64,000 bases of DNA from Escherichia phage vB_EcoM_G37-3: the sequence record MK327941.1. One strand, given 5' to 3'. This document shows positions 5,383-29,249 of the stretch, in pieces (position 1 is the stretch's first letter; each line of letters opens with the position of its first letter). A model generated the notes under the pieces. The model was not told the origin of the DNA. It ran no database searches and saw only the letters and a program-made list of their open reading frames with translations. The translations under genes were made by a program, and so were the position numbers.

Positions 5383-5579
5383 CACTTCGCCCCATTGACG
5401 ATTAACAGGATAGTGATCAGCACCGGAAACTGGATCATGATAGTGCCAATAAACCGGATAAATGCATTTTCTGACTTCCACACATGACATGCGACTAGCT
5501 GATAGACCATTGTTGAAACCAGAACTAGGATATAAACCGAAAGCGGTGTAACTTCGATTAGTCGGGAAATCTCATTCAT
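5382..5579 (-). CDS. Small hydrophobic (membrane) protein
   Basis: 65 aa, predominantly hydrophobic; translationally coupled to the downstream ORF. Confidence 0.45.
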   Translation of the reverse strand: MNEISRLIEVTPLSVYILVLVSTMVYQLVACHVWKSENAFIRFIGTIMIQFPVLITILLIVNGAK

Positions 5580-5744
5580 ACTTCACCTCATACATTCATA
5601 AACACAACAACGAATAATACAGTAACAGTTATCAACGCCATTTTCAACCCCATATTCATAATATTTTCTTCGCCTCACTATGGACAGTAGCAGGTCGATG
5701 CGTGCCATTATAGGCATCTAAATCGCTCTGTCAAGCACAAAAAC

Positions 5745-5769
5745 AAAAAGCCACCCCGAAGGATGGCTG
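5745..5769 (-). terminator. Rho-independent terminator after hoc
   Basis: Hairpin AGCCATCCTTCGGGGTGGCT plus T-run on minus strand. Confidence 0.6.
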
Positions 5770-5779
5770 ATAGATTTCA

Positions 5780-6990
5780 TTAAGCAGGATGCGTTTCACG
5801 AATGCGTAGAACTCGCTCTAACGTCGCTCGGTCCAGCTTATGTAACTCTTTGGAATGATACATGAAACCATTGCGAGATTCCATGCAAGTGCAATCACTA
5901 TATTTTTCTTCCGCTGCCGCGATCGTCTCCAGATCTTTGGCGTACTTGCTGGTTGAATAAACTTCTCGATCACGCCACTCTAACCCAGCCTCATTGAATT
6001 TAACAATCTCGTCAAATACCCACCATCCAATGTAGATAAATGAAGTTTTGCGCCACGGGATCGGGTGTACGTAACGAAACATTTTAACAACTTCCATTGA
6101 ACATTTTCGGCTTGTACTTGCTGCAACTTCTACTGTTTCATCTTCGATCTGTTGATATAGTTTAGCAACACACCAGAATTTGGCTGTGTCATCGTAAGTA
6201 GCACTCTCTTTGAACAGATGACCGTCTGGCATGATAGAAAATCCTTCCAGTGCTTCGCCGACCTCACTACCGATTAGAGTCGGTGACGGTTGCCCTTCGC
6301 GCTGCAAATACCAGTTATATTTGATCGTCAATTAGGCATACCGCTAGAATCGCCTACAATGTCCTCTGACACAACATAATTAAGTGATATCTCATTACCT
6401 AGTGCCACGGTCTTTGATTCCACCACATCCTGATCTACGTTCATTGTTGCCAGCATGATTTTAGTCGATGCGCTAGCGGCTGAATCTTCCGACTCGCCCC
6501 ACTTTTACAGTATACACGCCGTTTTTATCTGCTGTAAATTCTTGGATCGTAATATCCTTTTTTGTGTCTATAACGTCATCGCCCTTACTCCAACTATAAT
6601 GTAGTTCATAGTTGTCTGCTGGAGTCTTCCCACCAGAAAAATTGACTGTTGCATGTAATTCTACGTCTGTTTGTGATGATACGTAGAATGCTGCGGTTCG
6701 GTGATATTTACGATTAATGCAGCTTCTTCCATGAGGAAAACTTCAGATTCTACTGATGTCATCGTATCGGTATCTTGTACCGTTACTTTATAGCTACCCG
6801 CATTTTCACTTGTTGCGTCTGCTACAGTTAGCGTAGCTGTGCTATTTTCATGCGGTTGGTCGTCTTTTGTCCATGTATATGTCAAATTGCTGGGTAATGG
6901 TTCGTCACCCGCTACAGTCGCCGTTAAGGTGAAACCATCTCCAGCAAGAAAACATCTTTTGTTAGATTGTATTGATACTGTGAAAGCCAT
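5780..6990 (-). pseudogene. hoc: hoc (highly immunogenic outer capsid protein), disrupted by frameshifts
   Basis: N-terminal Ig-like domain (MAFTVSIQ..., TYTWTKDDQ, GSYKVTV) and C-terminal capsid-binding domain (YVHPIPWRKTSFIYIGWWVFDEI...ESRNGFMYH) both match T4 Hoc but lie in different frames; at least three frame changes near 6661-6742, about 6490 and about 6335. Confidence 0.75.
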
Positions 6991-7085
6991 ATAAAGCCAC
7001 TCCCATCGAAAATCCGAATTTAATTAATTGAAATAGTTGATTGTCATCAACCAGATAACCATTGCGAGATTCCAATACATGAGTA

Positions 7086-7250
7086 TTAGAATAGTGATGC
7101 AACGAGGCCGAAATAGTATCGATCTCGTCTGGGTATTTGTTCTGCTATAAAGTCTGCTGTACTAACAACAATCTTTAACAGAAGTGGATGACCAACGGAG
7201 CCATAAACCGGATCTTCTGTTTGATGTAATACATTGATTTTGTTAGACAT
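7086..7250 (-). CDS. Small hypothetical protein (54 aa)
   Basis: ATG at 7250 preceded by GGGAGA RBS. Confidence 0.4.
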   Translation of the reverse strand: MSNKINVLHQTEDPVYGSVGHPLLLKIVVSTADFIAEQIPRRDRYYFGLVASLF

Positions 7251-7330
7251 GTAGTTCTCCCTTTTTAATTGCATAACGGAACTACAATTAAAATTATAAC
7301 AAATATTTCACAACTTTTATCACCCAAAAA

Positions 7331-8056
7331 TTACTTGAGTGTGTGGAATTGGCTATGTTTAGTCTCTCGCACCTTGACAGACCCATCGCGTTTGATATAA
7401 TAGATCAGTGACTTGAGGGTGTCGTGTACATACGCGTGTGGGAAACGCTCTGGATACTTCTTCCAATCTGGAGTATTAACGATCCAGTCGAAAATCCACC
7501 ACGGGCAGGAGTAGTAACCACGACCGCCACCGATCAAACAAATGGTTGGACGGAAACCAGTAAGATCGCAAAATGAATCAGTGTCATGTGCAGGAGAACG
7601 ATGTTCGGCTTCGTCAGAGAAAATGTTTGCTACCGGAGATTTCACTTTAACTTCCGGTGCTTCTTCAACATCTGACTTAACTTCTTCGACCACTGGTTCA
7701 ACTGCTGGAGATTCTTCTTTTGTTTCTTCAATGACGATCTCAGGTTCTTTCATTGCTTCAACCAGAGACGGATCAACTTCGTCGAATACTACTTTATCAT
7801 CTGCGGTGTCTGCTGCCAGAATAAGATCGTTAATACTGGTTCCTTCTGCCGGAGTTTCTTCTTCCATTTCGGAAGCCAGTTTAGTTAATTCGGTTTCTAC
7901 GAACTCGATCATGTTCTCTAGTGAGAACGTCTTTTTGACCTTAATATCAAATTGTTTTGCGTAGTCCGCTAATTCTGTTTTAGCGGTTTTCTGTGCTTCT
8001 TTGTCGTCGGACGCCGCAATAGCGCGGAGTTCTTCGAAATATTCTTTATCAAACAT
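7331..8056 (-). CDS. inh: Inh-like protein (prohead protease inhibitor) with Hoc-type C-terminal domain
   Basis: Acidic middle region; C-terminus CPWWIFDWIVNTPDWKKYPERFPHAYVH resembles Hoc capsid-binding domain; position matches T4 inh. Confidence 0.5.
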   Translation of the reverse strand: MFDKEYFEELRAIAASDDKEAQKTAKTELADYAKQFDIKVKKTFSLENMIEFVETELTKLASEMEEETPAEGTSINDLILAADTADDKVVFDEVDPSLVEAMKEPEIVIEETKEESPAVEPVVEEVKSDVEEAPEVKVKSPVANIFSDEAEHRSPAHDTDSFCDLTGFRPTICLIGGGRGYYSCPWWIFDWIVNTPDWKKYPERFPHAYVHDTLKSLIYYIKRDGSVKVRETKHSQFHTLK

Positions 8057-8082
8057 GTTATTCTCCTGATTGGGGGTGTTTG

Positions 8083-8090
8083 TATAAATA
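8083..8090 (+). promoter_or_regulatory. Late promoter TATAAATA upstream of uvsW
   Basis: Exact TATAAATA about 37 nt upstream of ATG 8127. Confidence 0.5.
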
Positions 8091-8126
8091 TTTGTATACT
8101 GTATTTATTGAGTGAGGCTATTCGCT

Positions 8127-9814
8127 ATGCAAGATATTAAATTCACTTTCTGAACTACTCCCATGTTCAAATTGAATGTAGCGATTCAATTTTATTAGAA
8201 ATGCGAGATTATTTTAGTTTTGAAGTCGAGGGAGCGCGGTTTCAAAAAAGATTTAAGTATGGTGGATGGGATGGGCGTATTCGTCTTTTAGATTACAACG
8301 GAAAGCTGCCAATCGGTCTAACTAAAACCGTGGGAATCTTCGCTAAAAATATGGGCTATAGCGTATGGGTAGATCCTCGCTTATTCGAAAAAGAACAAGT
8401 TACAGAAGAAGAAATTACAAAATGGTGTAATAACTTAGAATTATATTCCGGTGCTAACAGGATCACCCCTCATTGGTATCAATCAAAGGCCGTCTTTGAA
8501 GGTATTTCATCATAAACGCCGTATGTTAGTTTTGCCTACGTCCGCTGGTAAATCTGCGATTGCTTGTATGTTGTCTCGTTGGTACTTAGAGAATTACGAA
8601 GGGAAAGTGTTGATCATCGTTCCTACCACGTCGCTAGTGCTGCAAATGCGTGATGACTTTGTTGATTATCGCCAGTTTCCTTATGAAGCAATTCATACTA
8701 TCATGAGCGGTACTAGTAAACACGTAGGTGATCGCCTGATCGTTGTTAGTACGTGGCAATCTGCATGTAAACAACCTAGTGAGTGGTTCCAACAATTCGG
8801 GATGGTTATTGTTGACGAATGTCACAAGGCCACTGCTAAAACCTGCTAAACATCGTTACTGATATGGATCATTGTCAATTTAAGATCGGCATGACTGGTT
8901 CCCCTCGTGACGGGAAAGCTAACATGATGCAGTATGTCGGGCTTTTCGGTGATATTTCTAAGATCGTGAGTATTGACCGCCTGATGGAAGAAGGGCAGGT
9001 GACAAAACTGAAAATTAACTGTCTTTTCCTTCGTTATACCGATGAGGAATAGCGCGGTTAAGGGGCGAGAATATGCGGAAGAGATCAAGTACATTACATC
9101 TAACCCACGACGAAATAAGTTTGCTTGTAATTTGGCGCTAAAACTCGCTAAGAAGGGCGAAAACGTATTCCTGATGTTCCGCAACACTAAGCACTGAAAA
9201 TTAACTGTCTTTTCCTTCGTTATACCGATGAGGAATGTAGCGCGGTTAAGGGGCGAGAATATGCGGAAGAGATCAAGTACATTACATCTAACCCACGACG
9301 AAATAAGTTTGCTTGTAATTTGGCGCTAAAACTCGCTAAGAAGGGCGAAAACGTATTCCTGATGTTCCGCAACACTAAGCACGGAAAACTTATGTATGAT
9401 GCGTTACAGAAGGTACACGACAAGGTTTATTATATTGACGGTGGAGTTAAGACAGAAGAACGTGATGAATTTAAGAAATTAGCGGAAGGGGAAACCGGGA
9501 TCATTTGCGTTGCATCCTATGGTGTGTTCTCTACTGGTGTTTCCATCAAGAATTTGCATCATGTTATTTTCGGTCATCCAGTGAAGGAATCAACTATCGT
9601 TCGTCAGAGTATCGGTCGTGCATTGCGTAAACATGGTTCTAAGGATATTGCAACGGTCTGGGATCTTATAGATCATCTGGCGGTGAAGACAAAGAGCAAT
9701 AATGCTAAGAAACAGTTTAGCCACCTTAATTATGCTCTTAAACATGCGCTTGAAAGAATAAAAATTTACAACACCGATCGATTCGAATATGTCACGAAAA
9801 CAATCGAGATTTAA
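8127..9814 (+). pseudogene. uvsW: uvsW (DNA/RNA helicase), disrupted by frameshifts and a tandem duplication
   Basis: Fragments in alternating frames match T4 UvsW (FSFE..G.RF, GWDGRIRLLDY, LPTSAGKS, DECH, GSPRDGKANMMQYVG, VFSTGVSIKNLHHV, TVWDLID); frame changes near 8140, 8505 and 8840, plus duplication at 9009-9382. Confidence 0.8.
9009..9382 (+). repeat. Tandem direct duplication inside uvsW (186 bp + 188 bp)
   Basis: Copies 9009-9194 and 9195-9382 identical except for a 2-nt GT indel; copy 1 reads GAG GAA TAG (stop), copy 2 reads through; junction at GAAAA microhomology. Confidence 0.9.
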
Positions 9815-21534: not shown

Positions 21535-21563
21535 GAAAACGGGGCTTAACGCCCCCTTTTTAT
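21535..21563. terminator. Hairpin terminator
   Basis: GGGGCTTAACGCCCC hairpin with flanking T/A runs. Confidence 0.45.
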
Positions 21564-21809: not shown

Positions 21810-21838
21810 ATTATAGGGGATCGATGATCCCCTGTCAA
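21810..21838 (-). promoter_or_regulatory. Early promoter with palindromic spacer (PeSL-type)
   Basis: Minus strand TTGACA-GGGGATCATCGATCCCC-TATAAT, A-tract upstream. Confidence 0.7.
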
Positions 21839-22366: not shown

Positions 22367-22699
22367 TTATAGTCTCCTGAATGGATCATCACGTAAATCA
22401 ATATCTTTTAAGAACTCATCCCATGAATGGCGGATATTGTTCTTAATTCTCCAGATAAGCGCAGGGATTGAACGCTCTCCCATCTGGAAGTATGGATCAT
22501 ATGATCCGTATGCCCAATATGCTACTACAATTCCACAATCAGAGCAATAGTATTCTATTTCACTTGCTGGCGACCAAAGTCCATCAATATGATCGGTGAT
22601 CTTGCTTTCGATGTTATGGCTATGACAATCAGGGCAACGGATGCAATGACCTTGTTTATCGTAATTTGACGTTAGCGAATACTTAAACAATCTCATCAT
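22367..22699 (-). CDS. Zinc-finger protein (hypothetical)
   Basis: CIRCPDCHSH...CSDC, two CxxC pairs. Confidence 0.5.
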   Translation of the reverse strand: MMRLFKYSLTSNYDKQGHCIRCPDCHSHNIESKITDHIDGLWSPASEIEYYCSDCGIVVAYWAYGSYDPYFQMGERSIPALIWRIKNNIRHSWDEFLKDIDLRDDPFRRL

Positions 22700-23412
22700 A
22701 GATCCTTATTGGCTTCAAATACTGCCTTTGCGAATCCTCGCGGGGTAAGTGACCTTATAGTCTTTGTTTTCGTTCCTTTCCCGCCTAGCTTAGAATGCTG
22801 TTTACTGTACCCTTTATTAATCTGCAAAGGTTTCTTTTCTGGCATCATAAAGCCTTGTCCGGTCCATAAGCAAGTCTTTTTCGGGTACATATCACGGGCG
22901 GCAATATACTCAGGAAACGTAGGATGCTTATCATCTTCCGGCAAATAACCGCCATATTCCCACGGATGAAACATATAATCAGGCTTACGCCACATGCTAG
23001 AGATAACGCTTACAGGATTCTCTATCATGTAGGGAACTCCTAGCCATTCACCCAAATAAGCGGTTATTTTAGCTGCCCGTACATCATGAACTTGAATCAA
23101 TGGTCCTTGTTCTCGTTTCTTTCGTTCAAAGTGCGCAGCGCCACTAACAGCTAAATTGGTGCACGGTGGGAATGCAAAGATAATATCCGGTTTCCCCCAT
23201 TCAAGGTCCATTGCTCTTTCCAGCCAGTTCAAATCAATCCATGTGTTTACATAGGTAATGTTTGGATGTTCAAATCTGGTATTATACTTTTTGTATGTGC
23301 CGTGGTCGCCATCATCAGCATTAAAGCAGATCACCTTATGACCTGCTTTAGCCCATTCTAGCCCCATTATCCCCGATCCGTCAAAGTTACAGAATATTAA
23401 TTTTTGTTTCAT
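22696..23412 (-). CDS. C5-cytosine methyltransferase-like protein (catalytic core only)
   Basis: Motif I-like FCNFDGSG, motif IV-like FPPCTNLAVSGA, motif VI-like MIENP; no evident target-recognition domain. Confidence 0.45.
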   Translation of the reverse strand: MKQKLIFCNFDGSGIMGLEWAKAGHKVICFNADDGDHGTYKKYNTRFEHPNITYVNTWIDLNWLERAMDLEWGKPDIIFAFPPCTNLAVSGAAHFERKKREQGPLIQVHDVRAAKITAYLGEWLGVPYMIENPVSVISSMWRKPDYMFHPWEYGGYLPEDDKHPTFPEYIAARDMYPKKTCLWTGQGFMMPEKKPLQINKGYSKQHSKLGGKGTKTKTIRSLTPRGFAKAVFEANKDL

Positions 23413-23902: not shown

Positions 23903-23942
23903 TGTTTGATTCTCCTAAGTGGTATCTCGTCTTGATGGTTGT

Positions 23943-23971
23943 ATTGTAGGGGAGTTATCCTCCCCTGTCAA
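23943..23971 (-). promoter_or_regulatory. Early promoter with palindromic spacer (PeSL-type)
   Basis: Minus strand TTGACA-GGGGAGGATAACTCCCC-TACAAT. Confidence 0.65.
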
Positions 23972-23985
23972 CACTTTTTATAAAA

Positions 23986-24153
23986 TTATTTGTTAATTTC
24001 TGGTGCGTTGCTAGGATAGTAACCTTCTTTAACACCCAGATATTTTGCAACCATCCCTACAATCTTCTGTGCTACTACAATGTCAAATTTCAGATAATCT
24101 TCGCCGTGGGTTTCAATGATATATGCTTCACATGCTGCTTTAGTCTCGAACAT
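23986..24153 (-). CDS. Small hypothetical protein (55 aa), paralog of 27246-27413
   Basis: AGGAGA RBS; about 90 percent nucleotide identity with second copy. Confidence 0.5.
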   Translation of the reverse strand: MFETKAACEAYIIETHGEDYLKFDIVVAQKIVGMVAKYLGVKEGYYPSNAPEINK

Positions 24154-24186
24154 TTTGATTCTCCTATTTCGTTTCGTTATGTGTGT

Positions 24187-24215
24187 ATTATAGGGGATCT
24201 CCCGATCCCCGTCAA
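24187..24215 (-). promoter_or_regulatory. Early promoter with palindromic spacer (PeSL-type)
   Basis: Minus strand TTGACG-GGGATCGGGAGATCCCC-TATAAT. Confidence 0.6.
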
Positions 24216-24229
24216 CAACTTTTTTAAAA

Positions 24230-24511
24230 TTATTCGTGATTAGTTTCGATGTTGTGCATTTTGCACCAGTTCAGCCAATCACCCAGATCCTGATAGTTAA
24301 TGCTTTTATCTGCTGCCATCGTTTTTGTCTTGATACCCATATGTGCGTTATGAGTAAGCATTTTTACAGTGAACTCAATTTTATCACCTTTAGCTTTAAC
24401 ATCAACCAGTTTGGTCCACTGGCTACCAGCGCCGCGAATGTTCATACCAACGATGTTTCCGATGTATGCTTCTTTGTTTTTCAGGATTTCGGTTGCTTTG
24501 ATGAATTTCAT
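24230..24511 (-). CDS. Hypothetical protein
   Basis: 93 aa, GGAGA RBS. Confidence 0.5.
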   Translation of the reverse strand: MKFIKATEILKNKEAYIGNIVGMNIRGAGSQWTKLVDVKAKGDKIEFTVKMLTHNAHMGIKTKTMAADKSINYQDLGDWLNWCKMHNIETNHE

Positions 24512-24581
24512 TTTTGATTCTCCAGTTCGTTTCGGTATGTGTGTATTATGCTATGTTCTTACTTTGGTGTCAACAACTTTT

Positions 24582-24851
24582 TTAGATATTTTCAGAAATA
24601 AATTTTAAAACTTGACGTAAATGTTTCTCATCTTTGATAGTCGCCGGAAGTTCTTCTTTTACTTCCTGTGCAAGATAGATATTTCCGTTCCAAGTGAAAG
24701 ATCCGTCTTCGTTTACGCGATAGCTGAACATCCACTCGCAATCATTTTCGATTTCATATACACACAGAAGGGTGTAATCGTTAAAGCTATTGATTTCAAG
24801 GTCGAAGCCGTGACGTTTTGCAAAGTTGGTAGTGGTTTTAGTCAGAGCCAT
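24582..24851 (-). CDS. Hypothetical protein
   Basis: 89 aa, AGGAGA RBS. Confidence 0.5.
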   Translation of the reverse strand: MALTKTTTNFAKRHGFDLEINSFNDYTLLCVYEIENDCEWMFSYRVNEDGSFTWNGNIYLAQEVKEELPATIKDEKHLRQVLKFISENI

Positions 24852-24924
24852 TGTTTGATTCTCCTAAATGGTATCTCGTTTCGATGTGTGTATTATGCTA
24901 TAGGCCGGATCTGGTGTCAATGCC

Positions 24925-24954
24925 TTTTTTAAAAAAGCCGACACTAAGGTCGGC
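24925..24954. terminator. Hairpin terminator
   Basis: GCCGACACTAAGGTCGGC flanked by T6 and A6. Confidence 0.55.
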
Positions 24955-24962
24955 TAATAAAA

Positions 24963-25271
24963 TCATTTAGACAAGTAATCATTCTGTGCAATACGGTCGG
25001 CGTATGCTGGTGTTATGTCAATCGCCAGCACTTTAACGCGTGCTTTCTTGCGACCTGGGTTTTCTCGTAACCAGTGCTCATGACCGTGAACATTTTTATA
25101 CTTTGATGCTTCTTCAAATGTACGGATCGGACCTGGGTAATCAGCGTAAAGGATCTCTAGGTCTTCGGTGATGTAAAAATATACATCGTAATTACTGTTC
25201 TCTAGTTTAAGCAGAGAGTTGCGAAATTGTGGTAAATTCTCGCGGGTAAATTCAACTACAAGATTTTTCAT
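24963..25271 (-). CDS. HxHW-family small protein, member 1
   Basis: HGHEHWLRENPGRKKARVKVLAIDITP. Confidence 0.55.
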   Translation of the reverse strand: MKNLVVEFTRENLPQFRNSLLKLENSNYDVYFYITEDLEILYADYPGPIRTFEEASKYKNVHGHEHWLRENPGRKKARVKVLAIDITPAYADRIAQNDYLSK

Positions 25272-25321
25272 AGTGATATCCTCATTCAGATAGATTAAAA
25301 GGGGGCTTAACGCCCCGTATA

Positions 25322-25609
25322 TTAAAACAGTCCTTCCTGTACACCGTAGTAGAGTTCATCGCTGATAATTTCATTAATGCGACGGTGTGCATATTCCTGA
25401 TTTGCGAAGTTATCAGCAAGTTCTACTTTAGTTTCGCCGTCATGAGTCCATTTAGTGATAACTTTACCATCTGCAAATTTGAAGTTGAACTCTTTAGCTA
25501 CTGCATCGCGTACCAGACGTGCGAACTTGTTGTTACGGATTGCATTATCGGTTTCGTGTGCAGCGTGAGCGAATTTGTTAACTTTCAGAGTGATAGTAAT
25601 GTATGCCAT
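25322..25609 (-). CDS. Hypothetical protein, paralog of 28851-29162
   Basis: Shared AKEFN.K core with second copy. Confidence 0.5.
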   Translation of the reverse strand: MAYITITLKVNKFAHAAHETDNAIRNNKFARLVRDAVAKEFNFKFADGKVITKWTHDGETKVELADNFANQEYAHRRINEIISDELYYGVQEGLF

Positions 25610-25655
25610 AATTTGATTCTCCTAGTTAGAAAGTGTATCTCGTTTCGATGGGGAT

Positions 25656-25684
25656 ATTATGCTATATCCCCGATCCGGTGTCAA
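25656..25684 (-). promoter_or_regulatory. Early promoter with inverted repeat flanking the -10
   Basis: Minus strand TTGACA-N17-CATAAT with GGGGATAT / ATATCCCC arms. Confidence 0.55.
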
Positions 25685-25690
25685 CACTTT

Positions 25691-25969
25691 TTATAAAATA
25701 ATTTTTTGATATTTTTCTATGATGTTCGTGTAAGTCACATCAACCGCTAGCACCGTTGCTTCGAATCCACCGTTTAGCCAATGGCTATGATCATGATCGT
25801 GAAAGAAACCTAGACCAGTACGAAGACCTTCTTTATATTCTGCGCGTACATTCAGTTTGTCGTCGATAAACAGATAAAACCATGAATTTTTACTAGGATT
25901 GATGATACAACCTTTCAGATTAGGGAGAATATCACGACTAAGAATAAACTTATCACCTACTTTGAGCAT
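25691..25969 (-). CDS. HxHW-family small protein, member 2
   Basis: HDHDHSHWLNGGFEATVLAVDVT; start at internal ATG. Confidence 0.5.
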   Translation of the reverse strand: MLKVGDKFILSRDILPNLKGCIINPSKNSWFYLFIDDKLNVRAEYKEGLRTGLGFFHDHDHSHWLNGGFEATVLAVDVTYTNIIEKYQKIIL

Positions 25970-25983
25970 AATATTTTCCTCAC

Positions 25984-26292
25984 TTATAAAGTTTGACCGT
26001 TGTTTTTCGCGTAATGCTGAATGCGTGCTTGATCTGCTTCCGCTGGTGATAGATTCCATGCGATCACTACAACTTCTGACGCATCATGATCATTATCACT
26101 TACCCAATGATTATGATTCATACAATTGTTTGCTATCGCGTGAGCAAATGATCTCATTACCGGAGACGTATAATCATAGTAACGGATTTTCAGATTTTCA
26201 TCAACGTACAAGTAGATCGTATACGGCTTATATTCAGTAACCAGTAACAGACAGTTACGCAATTCTGGGAAAATCTTTTTAGTTAATTTCAT
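25984..26292 (-). CDS. HxHW-family small protein, member 3
   Basis: NHNHWVSDNDHDASEVVVIAWN; start at ATG 26292. Confidence 0.5.
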   Translation of the reverse strand: MKLTKKIFPELRNCLLLVTEYKPYTIYLYVDENLKIRYYDYTSPVMRSFAHAIANNCMNHNHWVSDNDHDASEVVVIAWNLSPAEADQARIQHYAKNNGQTL

Positions 26293-26293
26293 T

Positions 26294-26512
26294 TTATAAT
26301 CCTCGGTCGCGGCTATAGTACACGGTACGCCATACAATTTCATGTTTCGTGTCGCTCCAGCACACGATCTCATTTACTCTTAAATCTTTGTTATCAACAA
26401 AAGATGAACATTGTGACGCTTCTTTCATCATTTTATCTGCTGTTTTCTCATCAAATACAGCACAGATTTCTTTATACACTCGATAATCTTTGAATTGACT
26501 CTGGATACTCAT
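26294..26512 (-). CDS. Hypothetical protein, paralog of 26515-26730
   Basis: SQFKDYRVYKEICAVFDEKTADKMMKEASQCSSF versus SKFKEYKAYQQILRVYEPEFAEKMMEDASKCPSF. Confidence 0.45.
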   Translation of the reverse strand: MSIQSQFKDYRVYKEICAVFDEKTADKMMKEASQCSSFVDNKDLRVNEIVCWSDTKHEIVWRTVYYSRDRGL

Positions 26513-26514
26513 AA

Positions 26515-26730
26515 TTAACACCAATCAAGAGTTTTTGAGAAAACCTCTATCCATTGTTGAGTATATGCGGTTTCTTTCCATGATACAATACCAGTAGAAT
26601 AATGGTTTTTGTTTCCAGAAAAGGACGGGCATTTTGATGCATCTTCCATCATCTTTTCGGCGAACTCTGGTTCGTATACCCGCAAAATCTGTTGATATGC
26701 TTTGTATTCTTTAAATTTGCTCATAATCAT
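26515..26730 (-). CDS. Hypothetical protein, paralog of 26294-26512
   Basis: Tandem paralog pair. Confidence 0.45.
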   Translation of the reverse strand: MIMSKFKEYKAYQQILRVYEPEFAEKMMEDASKCPSFSGNKNHYSTGIVSWKETAYTQQWIEVFSKTLDWC

Positions 26731-26989
26731 TCACTACCTTATCAGCTTCTTTTGTTGTTTTTACATCAACTGCGATAACCCGTAAAGGTTCGTCATGGTT
26801 CCACCAATGATCGTGAATATCGGCTTGTGATTTATCACCAAAGGAATCACGAATATCATTTTTACATTTATAGCTAATGTGACCGTCATAGTCAACATAA
26901 AGGTAATTATCGAAAATCGGCGTTTTTAAGATCATACCGAAAAATCTTTCTTTGTGTGTCTTATCCAGTGTTGCAGTAATTCGCATCAT
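26711..26989 (-). CDS. HxHW-family small protein, member 4
   Basis: IHDHWWNHDEPLRVIAVDVKT. Confidence 0.5.
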   Translation of the reverse strand: MMRITATLDKTHKERFFGMILKTPIFDNYLYVDYDGHISYKCKNDIRDSFGDKSQADIHDHWWNHDEPLRVIAVDVKTTKEADKVVNDYEQI

Positions 26990-27001
26990 AATATATTCCT
27001 C

Positions 27002-27181
27002 TTAGAAAGGGATGGTCATTTCTTGAGCTTGTACATTCTCGTTAGGATTAAACTTCATCCAACCGATATTGTCTACCAGCATATGTACATTTTTATCATA
27101 TCCTACGTGAGTAGTCAACACTAAATGTGCTTTACCTTCAACGATGATTTCCATGTACTTCTGAACTTCGATAGCTTTCAT
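27002..27181 (-). CDS. Small hypothetical protein (59 aa)
   Basis: ATG with GGAGA RBS. Confidence 0.4.
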   Translation of the reverse strand: MKAIEVQKYMEIIVEGKAHLVLTTHVGYDKNVHMLVDNIGWMKFNPNENVQAQEMTIPF

Positions 27182-27245
27182 TTTGATTCTCCGTTTGTTG
27201 TCTTGATGGGAGTATCTTACTACTCCCTTTAATCATTGTCAACGA

Positions 27246-27413
27246 TTATTTGTTAATTTCCGGTGCGTTGCTTGGATAGTAGCCTTCTTTAACACCCAGA
27301 TATTTTGCAACCATTCCGGTGATCTTCTGTGCTACTACGATATCGAATTTCAGGTAGTCTTCACCGTGGTTTGCTACAATGTATGCTTCGCATTCTGCTT
27401 TAGTCTGGAACAT
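27246..27413 (-). CDS. Small hypothetical protein (55 aa), paralog of 23986-24153
   Basis: Near-identical second copy. Confidence 0.5.
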   Translation of the reverse strand: MFQTKAECEAYIVANHGEDYLKFDIVVAQKITGMVAKYLGVKEGYYPSNAPEINK

Positions 27414-27447
27414 TTTTGATTCTCCTATATCTCGTTGGTATGTGTGT

Positions 27448-27476
27448 AGTATAGGGGATCACCGATCCCCTGTCAA
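27448..27476 (-). promoter_or_regulatory. Early promoter with palindromic spacer (PeSL-type)
   Basis: Minus strand TTGACA-GGGGATCGGTGATCCCC-TATACT. Confidence 0.65.
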
Positions 27477-27484
27477 CAACTTTT

Positions 27485-27775
27485 TTATTCTTTATACGCA
27501 TATTTCATAAATTTGTCTGCTACTTCATCGGCATGTTCCGATTCTACGCCGGATTCGAGAACAATAGCAAGGTCGGTTTCGTCGTGACCTTCGTACCAGT
27601 GATTATGTGTGTCGTTTGAATCAATATAGAATTTATCACCTTCGTAAGTTCGAGCAAATACATCTAAATTCTCGTCGATGTAAAAGATCCAATCTTCATA
27701 AAGAATAACCGTATTAGCAAGGTTCTTATTACCTTCAACGAAAGGTTCGGCTACAAACAAATCAGTACGTTCCAT
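27485..27775 (-). CDS. HxHW-family small protein, member 5
   Basis: THNHWYEGHDETDLAIVLE. Confidence 0.5.
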   Translation of the reverse strand: MERTDLFVAEPFVEGNKNLANTVILYEDWIFYIDENLDVFARTYEGDKFYIDSNDTHNHWYEGHDETDLAIVLESGVESEHADEVADKFMKYAYKE

Positions 27776-27790
27776 AGTATTTTCCTCAAA

Positions 27791-27952
27791 TTAAGAAAAA
27801 GCGTTGAAAACACCCGCCAACACAACTACGTTAGCGATAAGGCTTAAAAAGCATTTCTTGATACTTTCAGTGCAGATACCAATACTGGCAGGAATTACAC
27901 CGATCACGATAGCATAAAGAATAACTGCGATTTCTTGAAATACACCGTTCAT
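27791..27952 (-). CDS. Small membrane protein (53 aa)
   Basis: Hydrophobic ORF MNGVFQEIAVILYAIVIGVIPASIGI... Confidence 0.35.
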   Translation of the reverse strand: MNGVFQEIAVILYAIVIGVIPASIGICTESIKKCFLSLIANVVVLAGVFNAFS

Positions 27953-28008
27953 AATATTATCCTCAATTTGTGGGAGAGTATTACCCTCCCGATTATTGTT
28001 ATACTACA

Positions 28009-28311
28009 TTACGCAAAATGGCGTGTCAATACTTCTTTTGCTGTTCCGCTAAGATTCTCGATCTCTCCTGGCATAACATCAACCGCCAGAACTTCTACAA
28101 CATCCTCTGATCCTAACCAGTGAGTATGACCTTTGTAGAACTTGATATCCCATTTATCGCTATCGCTAGCCCACCACACATCACCGTCTATAAAGTTGAT
28201 GTAAAGCACACTACGACACATTGAATTAGTTACTTTCAATACTGCGCCTTTCATCTCTTCCACGGTATGGTCTTCCATTTTGAAGACCTCGCCTACCTTA
28301 ACTTTTGCCAT
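28009..28311 (-). CDS. HxHW-family small protein, member 6
   Basis: GHTHWLGSEDVVEVLAVDVMP; start at ATG 28311. Confidence 0.5.
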   Translation of the reverse strand: MAKVKVGEVFKMEDHTVEEMKGAVLKVTNSMCRSVLYINFIDGDVWWASDSDKWDIKFYKGHTHWLGSEDVVEVLAVDVMPGEIENLSGTAKEVLTRHFA

Positions 28312-28312
28312 G

Positions 28313-28579
28313 TTACATGCTCCGAATATGTTTAGATGCATCTTCCAGTTCGTCGATAGTGACACTGTGAGCCAGTAAGTGTACTGGTTGTGGTTCTTCA
28401 CCTTCCATAGTATTGATCAGATGACCGTTTCCTGGGTGGAATGTATCGTTGCCGTTCCAAATAGCATACACATCATCTTCTGTTACGTAGATAATAAGTC
28501 CAATCGGTGATTCTGGTAATTGAAAAATTTTACCCACTGCATCTTTGCGATTGTTTACGATATCTTTTACTGTCTTCAT
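28313..28579 (-). CDS. HxHW-family-related small protein, member 7 (divergent)
   Basis: FHPGNGHLINTMEGEEPQPVHLLAHSVTIDE. Confidence 0.4.
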   Translation of the reverse strand: MKTVKDIVNNRKDAVGKIFQLPESPIGLIIYVTEDDVYAIWNGNDTFHPGNGHLINTMEGEEPQPVHLLAHSVTIDELEDASKHIRSM

Positions 28580-28598
28580 TTAGTTACCTCTCGTTAAA

Positions 28599-28778
28599 TT
28601 ACATCACAATCACGCCAGCCGTTGAAAGTTGATGTTTCAACTGAGCATTTTCTGCTACTGTCAAATCAATGATTTCTTGTGACGCTGCAATCATATAGCC
28701 ATTGGTGATATTGTTTTGCATCAGTTCAATGGTTTCTTCGTTGTAGCGGATTTTAGCGATGATTTCGTTGAAGTTCAT
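28599..28778 (-). CDS. Small hypothetical protein (59 aa)
   Basis: ATG with GGAGA RBS. Confidence 0.4.
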   Translation of the reverse strand: MNFNEIIAKIRYNEETIELMQNNITNGYMIAASQEIIDLTVAENAQLKHQLSTAGVIVM

Positions 28779-28812
28779 GTTTGATTCTCCTAGTTCGTTT
28801 CGGTATGTGTGT

Positions 28813-28842
28813 ATTATAGGGGAGTTTAACCTCCCTTGTCAA
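28813..28842 (-). promoter_or_regulatory. Early promoter with palindromic spacer (PeSL-type)
   Basis: Minus strand TTGACA-AGGGAGGTTAAACTCCCC-TATAAT. Confidence 0.6.
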
Positions 28843-28850
28843 CAACTTTT

Positions 28851-29162
28851 TTAAAGTTTTTCCATGATAACGGTCATAATTACATCTTCTGCGCGGGCGG
28901 TCAGATTATCAGCGTCAGCATGTGGGCGGTTGGTTGTTACAGAGATAACACCGTTGCGCACTGGTTTGATATTGATATCAAGATGATCCGCGAAACGTTC
29001 GCCAGTTACAGAATGAATTTTGGTGTTAAATTCTTTTGCCAGTGCCTTGCGAACTTCACGAATCAGGATAGCGTTTTTCAGTTGGTTCTCCGCGCTCATG
29101 GTCTTCTGGGTGTTCATGGTTCCGTCGAAGTCAATCATTGGCAGCGTTACGATGTATTTCAT
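28851..29162 (-). CDS. Hypothetical protein, paralog of 25322-25609
   Basis: Shared AKEFN.K core. Confidence 0.5.
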   Translation of the reverse strand: MKYIVTLPMIDFDGTMNTQKTMSAENQLKNAILIREVRKALAKEFNTKIHSVTGERFADHLDINIKPVRNGVISVTTNRPHADADNLTARAEDVIMTVIMEKL

Positions 29163-29207
29163 TTTTGATTCTCCGTTTAAGAAAGTGTGTTTCGTTTTGA
29201 TGTGTGT

Positions 29208-29236
29208 AGTATAGGGGATACGTGATCCCCTGTCAA
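29208..29236 (-). promoter_or_regulatory. Early promoter with palindromic spacer (PeSL-type)
   Basis: Minus strand TTGACA-GGGGATCACGTATCCCC-TATACT. Confidence 0.65.
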
Positions 29237-29249
29237 CAACTTTTTTGAA

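Follow-up and report, generated by a model that had tools for sequence, protein, structure and literature searches.

Phages RB49 and phi1 offer the closest described counterpart to the locus studied here. Genes in these phages are shuffled around promoter-early stem-loops (PeSLs), cassettes that combine an AT-rich tract, a consensus sigma-70 promoter, a stem-loop terminator and a Shine-Dalgarno sequence (Arbiol et al. 2010, PMC2839356). Promoter and terminator activity was shown in RB49/phi1 for PeSL193/192, 206/205 and 211/210. Inverse PCR revealed that recombination of neighbouring PeSLs gives mini-circles with open reading frames (ORFs) ORF191-194, ORF192-193 or ORF210, those of the ORF210 module having experimental evidence in both RB49 and phi1 (PMC2839356). 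Shuffling in RB49/phi1 is also treated in a further PeSL paper (Comeau et al. 2014, PMC4122927), and neither publication mentions paralogues or duplication. We analysed a 64,000-nucleotide stretch of Escherichia phage vB_EcoM_G37-3 (MK327941.1; the window), in which an earlier note had proposed three pairs of duplicated small genes. Our analysis suggests that these are very probably true paralogues of three different ages, with a PeSL-cassette origin for pair 1, a tandem origin for pair 2 and an ancient or captured origin for pair 3.

Results

A 6-kb query across the region matched 58 phage records, all of them Krischvirus (RB49-like, "pseudo-T-even"); the closest at this locus was Escherichia phage FL15 (96.5% over 6 kb), and RB49 was 94% identical over 6 kb. 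The window thus belongs to an RB49-like (Krischvirus) T4-type coliphage, and its 23.9-29.3 kb segment is what Arbiol et al. 2010 (PMC2839356) described as hyperplastic region 3, RB49 ORF190-211. Gene for gene the region corresponds to RB49 ORF189.1-ORF211, flanked by a DNA methyltransferase gene (window 22696-23412) and by genes for an HNH endonuclease and the gp30 ligase. It is a run of about 20 small genes, all on the minus strand, at a locus whose gene content varies among relatives; RB49 ORF192, 195, 196 and 196.1 are missing from the window, as they are from phi1. All six coordinate ranges of the note proved to be exact minus-strand ORFs, stop codons included, and the three pair families have no further copies elsewhere in the window.

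Pair 1 consists of homologues of RB49 ORF191 (copy A) and ORF205 (copy B). In a full global alignment 145 of their 168 nucleotides (nt) are identical (86.3%), far above shuffled sequences (51.4 ± 2.8%), and a repeat scan gave 87% over 172 nt, so that the duplication stands at an identity slightly lower than the "about 90 percent" first reported. The proteins share 49 of 55 amino acids (aa) (89%; BLASTP E 1e-37). The copies had also been called near-identical and recent, a description that their divergence does not support. Within the window they differ by a nonsynonymous divergence (dN) of 0.055 and a synonymous divergence (dS) of 0.75; across phages the A-B dS is 0.54-1.18, against 0-0.13 between orthologues. 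A tblastn census found both copies in 51/58 Krischvirus records, each nearly invariant across phages: the copy A protein is 100% identical to the ORF191 homologues of Phi1, FL15 and JSE, and that of copy B to ORF205 of RB49, JSE and MIZ4. The dS and the presence of two copies in so many records place the duplication before the sampled genus; it is old and has become fixed. Purifying selection acts on both copies (dN/dS ~0.07).

The cassettes between these genes agree with the note's description of a hyperplastic region packed with repeated promoters. Nine minus-strand sigma-70 promoters match the consensus at at least 11 of 12 positions, all of them intergenic and with a -35/-10 spacing of ~17 nt (examples of the spacers are 27453-27469, 24193-24209 and 21815-21831). 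The AT-rich tract 5′ of the promoter boxes contains the stop codon of the upstream gene, and stem-loops of a G-run, a loop and a C-run lie between the boxes or overlap them. Energies of these hairpins lie between -9.2 and -14.3 kcal/mol, with z scores versus shuffles between -1.7 and -3.9, and a Shine-Dalgarno sequence with start, GGAGAATCAA(A)ATG, recurs at 11 minus-strand sites. By promoter, stem-loop, Shine-Dalgarno sequence and hyperplastic setting the cassettes are PeSLs in layout.

The copies of pair 1 lie in direct orientation with a start-to-start spacing of 3260. Gene-specific similarity between A and B spans Shine-Dalgarno/ATG to the stop codon, with a PeSL on either side. Co-duplication of the PeSL was rejected, as the PeSLs of the two copies, 82% alike, are no closer than others (copy-A PeSL versus ORF209 PeSL 82%, versus ORF185 PeSL 81%); duplication including the neighbours was rejected as well, ORF204/ORF190 and ORF206/ORF193 showing no similarity. 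Since the similarity is limited to the ORF, the neighbours are unrelated and the likeness of the PeSLs is non-specific, the duplicated unit is one ORF between PeSLs. This is the topology expected of a PeSL-bounded module inserted into another PeSL, and we infer that pair 1 arose in this way, prior to the divergence of the sampled Krischviruses. The module may have been excised as a mini-circle and then reinserted, or replicating genomes may have made an equivalent exchange, PeSL by PeSL. The note had thought it likely that duplication was mediated by the cassettes; this suits pair 1 as a PeSL-bounded module and is not indicated for pair 2.

Comparison with related isolates, which the note had advised, showed that copy number does differ, with junctions inside cassettes. 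In Cognac and FL04 the gene order is 206-191-190, with a single A-type copy and the 3,260 bp between the copies gone. The Cognac junction has a PeSL that is B-type through the 5′ untranslated region, and A-type sequence from between Shine-Dalgarno and ATG; in FL04 the switch from B to A lies in the -35/stem-loop. Because the flank variants of Cognac match those private to two-copy RB49, and those of FL04 match those private to two-copy MIZ4, the two loci are most simply explained as independent deletions, presumably by crossing-over between the repeats. A paper on Cognac and Brandy (PMC9569957) does not mention these deletions. Beside the FL04 junction, at FL04 6355-6873, is an annotated ORF of 519 nt; it is ORF206-like (72%) in its 3′ part and may be a fusion or have a mis-called start.

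Modules are missing from other relatives as well. Brandy, JK32 and UPWr_E1 carry one chimeric PeSL at the site of the ORF191 module, in which the 5′ half of the ORF191 PeSL is joined to the 3′ half of the ORF190 PeSL, and a second chimeric PeSL at the ORF210(+211) site, where the ORF210 type is missing. In MIZ4 the ORF193 PeSL is joined to the ORF185 PeSL, hence without ORF186-191. The relatives thus differ by modules, and the junctions fall within PeSLs and leave one chimeric PeSL behind, as in modular shuffling; the junction zones coincide with those mapped experimentally for mini-circles (PMC2839356). Among the 58 Krischvirus records the ORF198 type is present in 56 and the ORF210 type in 43, and pair 2 genes are found in 56, with both members in 53. 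Each pair has natural isolates with one member only, and therefore none of these genes is essential.

Several points weigh against this account. In principle, the loci with one copy might represent ancestral empty sites instead of deletions, and the derived state was judged only from shared flank variants and the conversion patches described below, a comparison of 7-9 sequences per copy. Assembly collapse in the Cognac or FL04 sequence record is possible. The inferred origin of pair 1 rests on topology, no intermediate having been observed and the flanking PeSLs not being specifically related. Finally, the genes are classed as "early" from promoter type and PMC2839356.

It is also conceivable, if unlikely, that copies A and B are xenologues, two alleles captured independently from different phages by PeSL-mediated exchange, for instance by way of a Campbell-type integration of a ~3.3 kb circle bearing a diverged ORF191 allele and cargo. 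The PeSL model allows co-infecting phages to exchange modules (PMC2839356), the A-B dS far exceeds orthologue divergence, and homologues exist outside the genus, in a metagenomic contig (83%) and in the siphovirus swi2 (72%); a circle carrying a homologue, once integrated, would itself yield direct repeats around its cargo. However, A and B, at 89% aa identity, are mutually closest among homologues from 1.84 billion representative proteins and 50,697 phage records, and no phage with the cargo alone was found. The swi2 homologue (72% identical; Escherichia phage vB_EcoS_swi2 3001-3156) belongs to an unrelated 47.6 kb siphovirus, in which it is flanked by the portal and terminase genes and encoded on the opposite strand, and indicates probable horizontal spread of the pair 1 gene.

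The two copies of pair 1 still recombine with each other, through short gene-conversion tracts in both directions. Copy A of the window has copy-B bases at nt 108, 114, 117 and 120, unlike copy A of Phi1, FL15, FL04 and RB49, and copy A of Cognac has B-type bases at nt 114-120. Conversely, six diagnostic sites in a row have copy-A bases in copy B of Brandy (nt 51-75), as do three in copy B of KMB43 (nt 69-75). Both copies also share synonymous polymorphisms, at nt 132, 141 and 153. Constraint on an overlapping element or on an invariant C-terminal peptide, in place of conversion, is a very improbable cause of the near-identical 3′ third: although the C-terminal peptide KEGYYPSNAPEIN is the same in both copies and in the outgroup at 83%, the variation at nt 100-165 is synonymous, with A and B segregating for the same alternative bases, which constraint does not explain, and the Brandy and KMB43 patches lie further 5′.

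The members of pair 2, homologues of ORF201 and ORF202, are related at the protein level: 25 of 63 aa are identical (40%; BLASTP E 2e-17), and the Smith-Waterman score is 135 against 24.5 ± 4.6 for shuffles (0/5000). Nucleotide identity (57.5% versus 51.6 ± 2.4% for shuffles) is barely over background. The two genes, midway in a six-gene operon, have a gap of 2 nt from stop to start (TAATTATG), and a promoter scan found no promoter or PeSL between them; cassette mediation is therefore not indicated. JSE and KMB43 are without ORF201, the ORF201 allele of Phi1/MIZ4 is only 62% identical to that of the window, and a metagenomic T4-type phage (described below) has a single homologue, 38% identical to the ORF202 type and 29% to the ORF201 type. 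Pair 2 is thus an old head-to-tail tandem duplication in a polycistronic unit, with one fast-evolving dispensable copy; it would be older than that of pair 1 and would not have involved PeSLs. The true start of the ORF202-type gene is likely the second ATG, at 26724.

Pair 3 (ORF198 and ORF210 types) is not visible in the form first proposed, and the evidence points to remote homology only. Nucleotide identity is at chance (51.9% versus 50.5 ± 1.8% for shuffles) and direct default BLASTP yields E 8.1. The full length of each protein matches phrog_7474 (E ~4e-43), and both match gp146 of Shigella phage SP18, the ORF198 type at 45% (pairwise E 3e-15) and the ORF210 type at 32% (E 6e-13). An AlphaFold (AF2) model of the ORF198-type protein (predicted local distance difference test, pLDDT, 81.6; predicted template modelling score, pTM, 0.76) has the order beta-alpha-beta-beta-alpha and agrees with the BFVD model of the kvi orthologue (template modelling score, TM, 0.96). 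An independent BFVD model of RB49 ORF210 matched it at TM 0.59-0.67, probability 0.99. From the shared PHROG, the bridging gp146 and the matching predicted folds we consider the pair to be remotely homologous.

That the two proteins are unrelated, linked by a chance or convergent 24-residue match (...VR.A.AKEFN.K) and by a gp146 that is a chimera, seems to us quite improbable. The BLASTP and nucleotide values speak for it, the C-terminal halves do not align, and gp146, which resembles the ORF210 type N-terminally and the ORF198 type C-terminally, might be a recombinant, not a neutral bridge. Yet both gp146 alignments span most of that protein and overlap at residues 14-88, the local match scores 55 by Smith-Waterman against 26.2 ± 4.7 (z ~6; 2/5000 shuffles reach it), profile clustering by the PHROG authors placed both proteins in one group, and the models share their secondary-structure elements in the same order. 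The pair could go back to an ancient duplication, or two proteins from one small family could have been captured separately. Each of the two genes has a PeSL of its own at its head, and the divergence is too great to tell how the pair arose. RB49 ORF210 (L001 6814-7140) contains an in-frame 18-nt tandem duplication (ERFADH twice), which is missing from the window gene, Phi1, JSE and others.

Searches for function gave little. Pfam had no significant match for any of the six proteins, and none at E up to 10 for five ORF198/210 family members; a search with sequence profiles against PDB returned nothing at E up to 10, and the three PHROGs matched carry no functional assignment. PHROGs already groups the members of each pair. 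Searched exhaustively with HMMER, 1.84 billion representative proteins gave 9 matches to the pair 1 profile, ~4 of them credible; the family is tiny and the matches yielded no functional clue. Word-indexed searches found only 4 close relatives of the ORF191 type, 2 of the ORF198 type and 1 of the ORF210 type, too few for independent deep profiles. For the pair 1 protein the structure model is of low confidence (pLDDT 67, pTM 0.37); it has two helices, and its tail is disordered. As products of early, dispensable and variably present genes, the proteins are most likely accessory host-interaction factors.

DinI is a modulator of RecA in E. coli (PDB 1GHH / 7YWA). The model of the ORF198-type protein has the fold of the DinI family (PF06183), ~80 residues in the order beta-alpha-beta-beta-alpha, and is alike in fold only: the family profile does not match, and hhalign against E. 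coli DinI gives E 0.16. DinI is strongly acidic at its C-terminal helix, whereas the pair 3 proteins (isoelectric points 6.4 and 8.1) are only mildly acidic there. We offer it as a long shot that the ORF198/ORF210 family are DinI-fold modulators of a recombinase filament (host RecA or phage UvsX) that travel on mobile PeSL cassettes and owe their diversity to duplication. If this were true, a phage remodelled by recombination would also carry cassette-borne regulators of recombination or of the SOS response.

The coordinates of the region's features are collected in Table 1. The region also encodes a six-member paralogue family of ~92-102 aa with an H-x-H-W motif (RB49 ORF197, 199, 200, 203, 206 and 208 types). 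Its ORF197 and ORF200 types match at E 2e-15 and the others at 1e-3 to 5e-6, and several match phrog_9345; JSE has two further members in place of the ORF199-201 homologues. The 15-nt hairpin GGGGCGTTAAGCCCC is identical at 25302-25316 and 21541-21555, two terminator-like sites 3.8 kb apart.

In the first nine loci sampled, the predicted 53-aa membrane protein at the ORF207 position (27791-27952) occurs elsewhere in FL15 only, and the ORF208b type (28313-28579, 88 aa) in FL15 and JSE only; the latter has a 57% homologue in the metagenomic contig L010. These differences, probably local allele replacements, lie within an operon and have no PeSL boundaries. The metagenomic T4-type phage L011 (ENA ERZ27235406 k119_4708, 5494-9761) keeps the ligase-to-Alt backbone with a variable region otherwise stocked. 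It has single homologues of the ORF190, 193, 194, 198, 201/202 and 209 types and two ORF206-like genes, with no ORF191/205 or ORF210 homologue in the variable region, and is useful as an outgroup.

Table 1. Putative genes, cassettes and transcription units of the region (positions in the window; gene numbers after RB49)
Feature	Positions	Strand	Description
Pair 1 copy A	23986..24153	-	55 aa, ORF191 type, single-gene PeSL module; phrog_8009 E 7e-38
Pair 1 copy B	27246..27413	-	55 aa, ORF205 type, single-gene PeSL module
Repeat unit	24154..27413	-	3,260 bp: copy B, ORF204-ORF193 homologues, copy A PeSL; missing in Cognac, FL04
PeSL 5′ of copy A	24154..24229	-	AT-rich tract, TTGACG, GGGATCGGGAGATCCC stem-loop, TATAAT, GGAG Shine-Dalgarno; hairpin -13.9 kcal/mol
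PeSL 5′ of copy B	27414..27484	-	TTGACA, GGGGATCGGTGATCCCC stem-loop, TATACT, GGAG Shine-Dalgarno; hairpin -12.8 kcal/mol
PeSL 3′ of copy A	23903..23985	-	promoter of ORF190 homologue
Degenerate PeSL 3′ of copy B	27182..27245	-	promoter of ORF204 homologue; TTGACA-17-TAAGAT; stem-loop overlaps -10 box; -12.2 kcal/mol
Pair 2, downstream member	26294..26512	-	72 aa, ORF201 type; phrog_8471 E 3e-33
Pair 2, upstream member	26515..26730	-	71 aa, ORF202 type; phrog_8471 E 1e-36
Pair 3, ORF198 type	25322..25609	-	95 aa; predicted beta-alpha-beta-beta-alpha fold
Pair 3, ORF210 type	28851..29162	-	103 aa, single-gene PeSL module
PeSL 5′ of ORF198-type gene	25610..25690	-	stem-loop overlapping -10 box; hairpin -14.3 kcal/mol
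PeSL 5′ of ORF210-type gene	29163..29249	-	
PeSL 3′ of ORF210-type gene	28779..28850	-	promoter of ORF209 homologue; 12/12 promoter consensus
Terminator after ORF198-type gene	25302..25316	-	hairpin GGGGCGTTAAGCCCC and T-run; -11 kcal/mol
H-x-H-W family	24963-25271, 25691-25969, 25984-26292, 26711-26989, 27485-27775, 28009-28311	-	
Unit 1			PeSL, 210
Unit 2			PeSL, 209-208b-208a-207-206
Unit 3			PeSL, 205
Unit 4			PeSL, 204-203-202-201-200-199
Unit 5			PeSL, 198 (terminator), 197 (terminator)
Unit 6			PeSL, 194
Unit 7			PeSL, 193
Unit 8			PeSL, 191
Unit 9			PeSL, 190 and onward

Discussion

The locus, its cassettes and their recombination were already published (2010) for phages 94-96% identical, and in this respect the finding is ordinary; its value is confirmatory and its weight as a discovery small. 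What is new is that two of the cassette genes are paralogues that form an old 3.26 kb direct repeat, that gene conversion runs across the repeat copies, that field isolates bear the deletion and excision products predicted by the mini-circle model, and that one family has a DinI-like predicted fold. A cassette gene that is present twice, converts and deletes provides a natural measure of the turnover of the region, and the fold likeness is a cheap, testable lead for early genes without annotation.

We found no sequence relationship of these genes to any named T4 gene. They resemble the tandem and dispersed paralogue families that T4-type phages have among their small early genes in being small, dispensable, served by early promoters and variable among close relatives, with fast divergence after duplication. 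The closest likeness is to hyperplastic region 3 of RB49/phi1: the locus (ORF190-211), the cassette layout and the modules (ORF191-194 and ORF210) are the same, and the crossovers in the PeSLs fall in the same zones, from the -10 box to the ATG and in the stem-loop.

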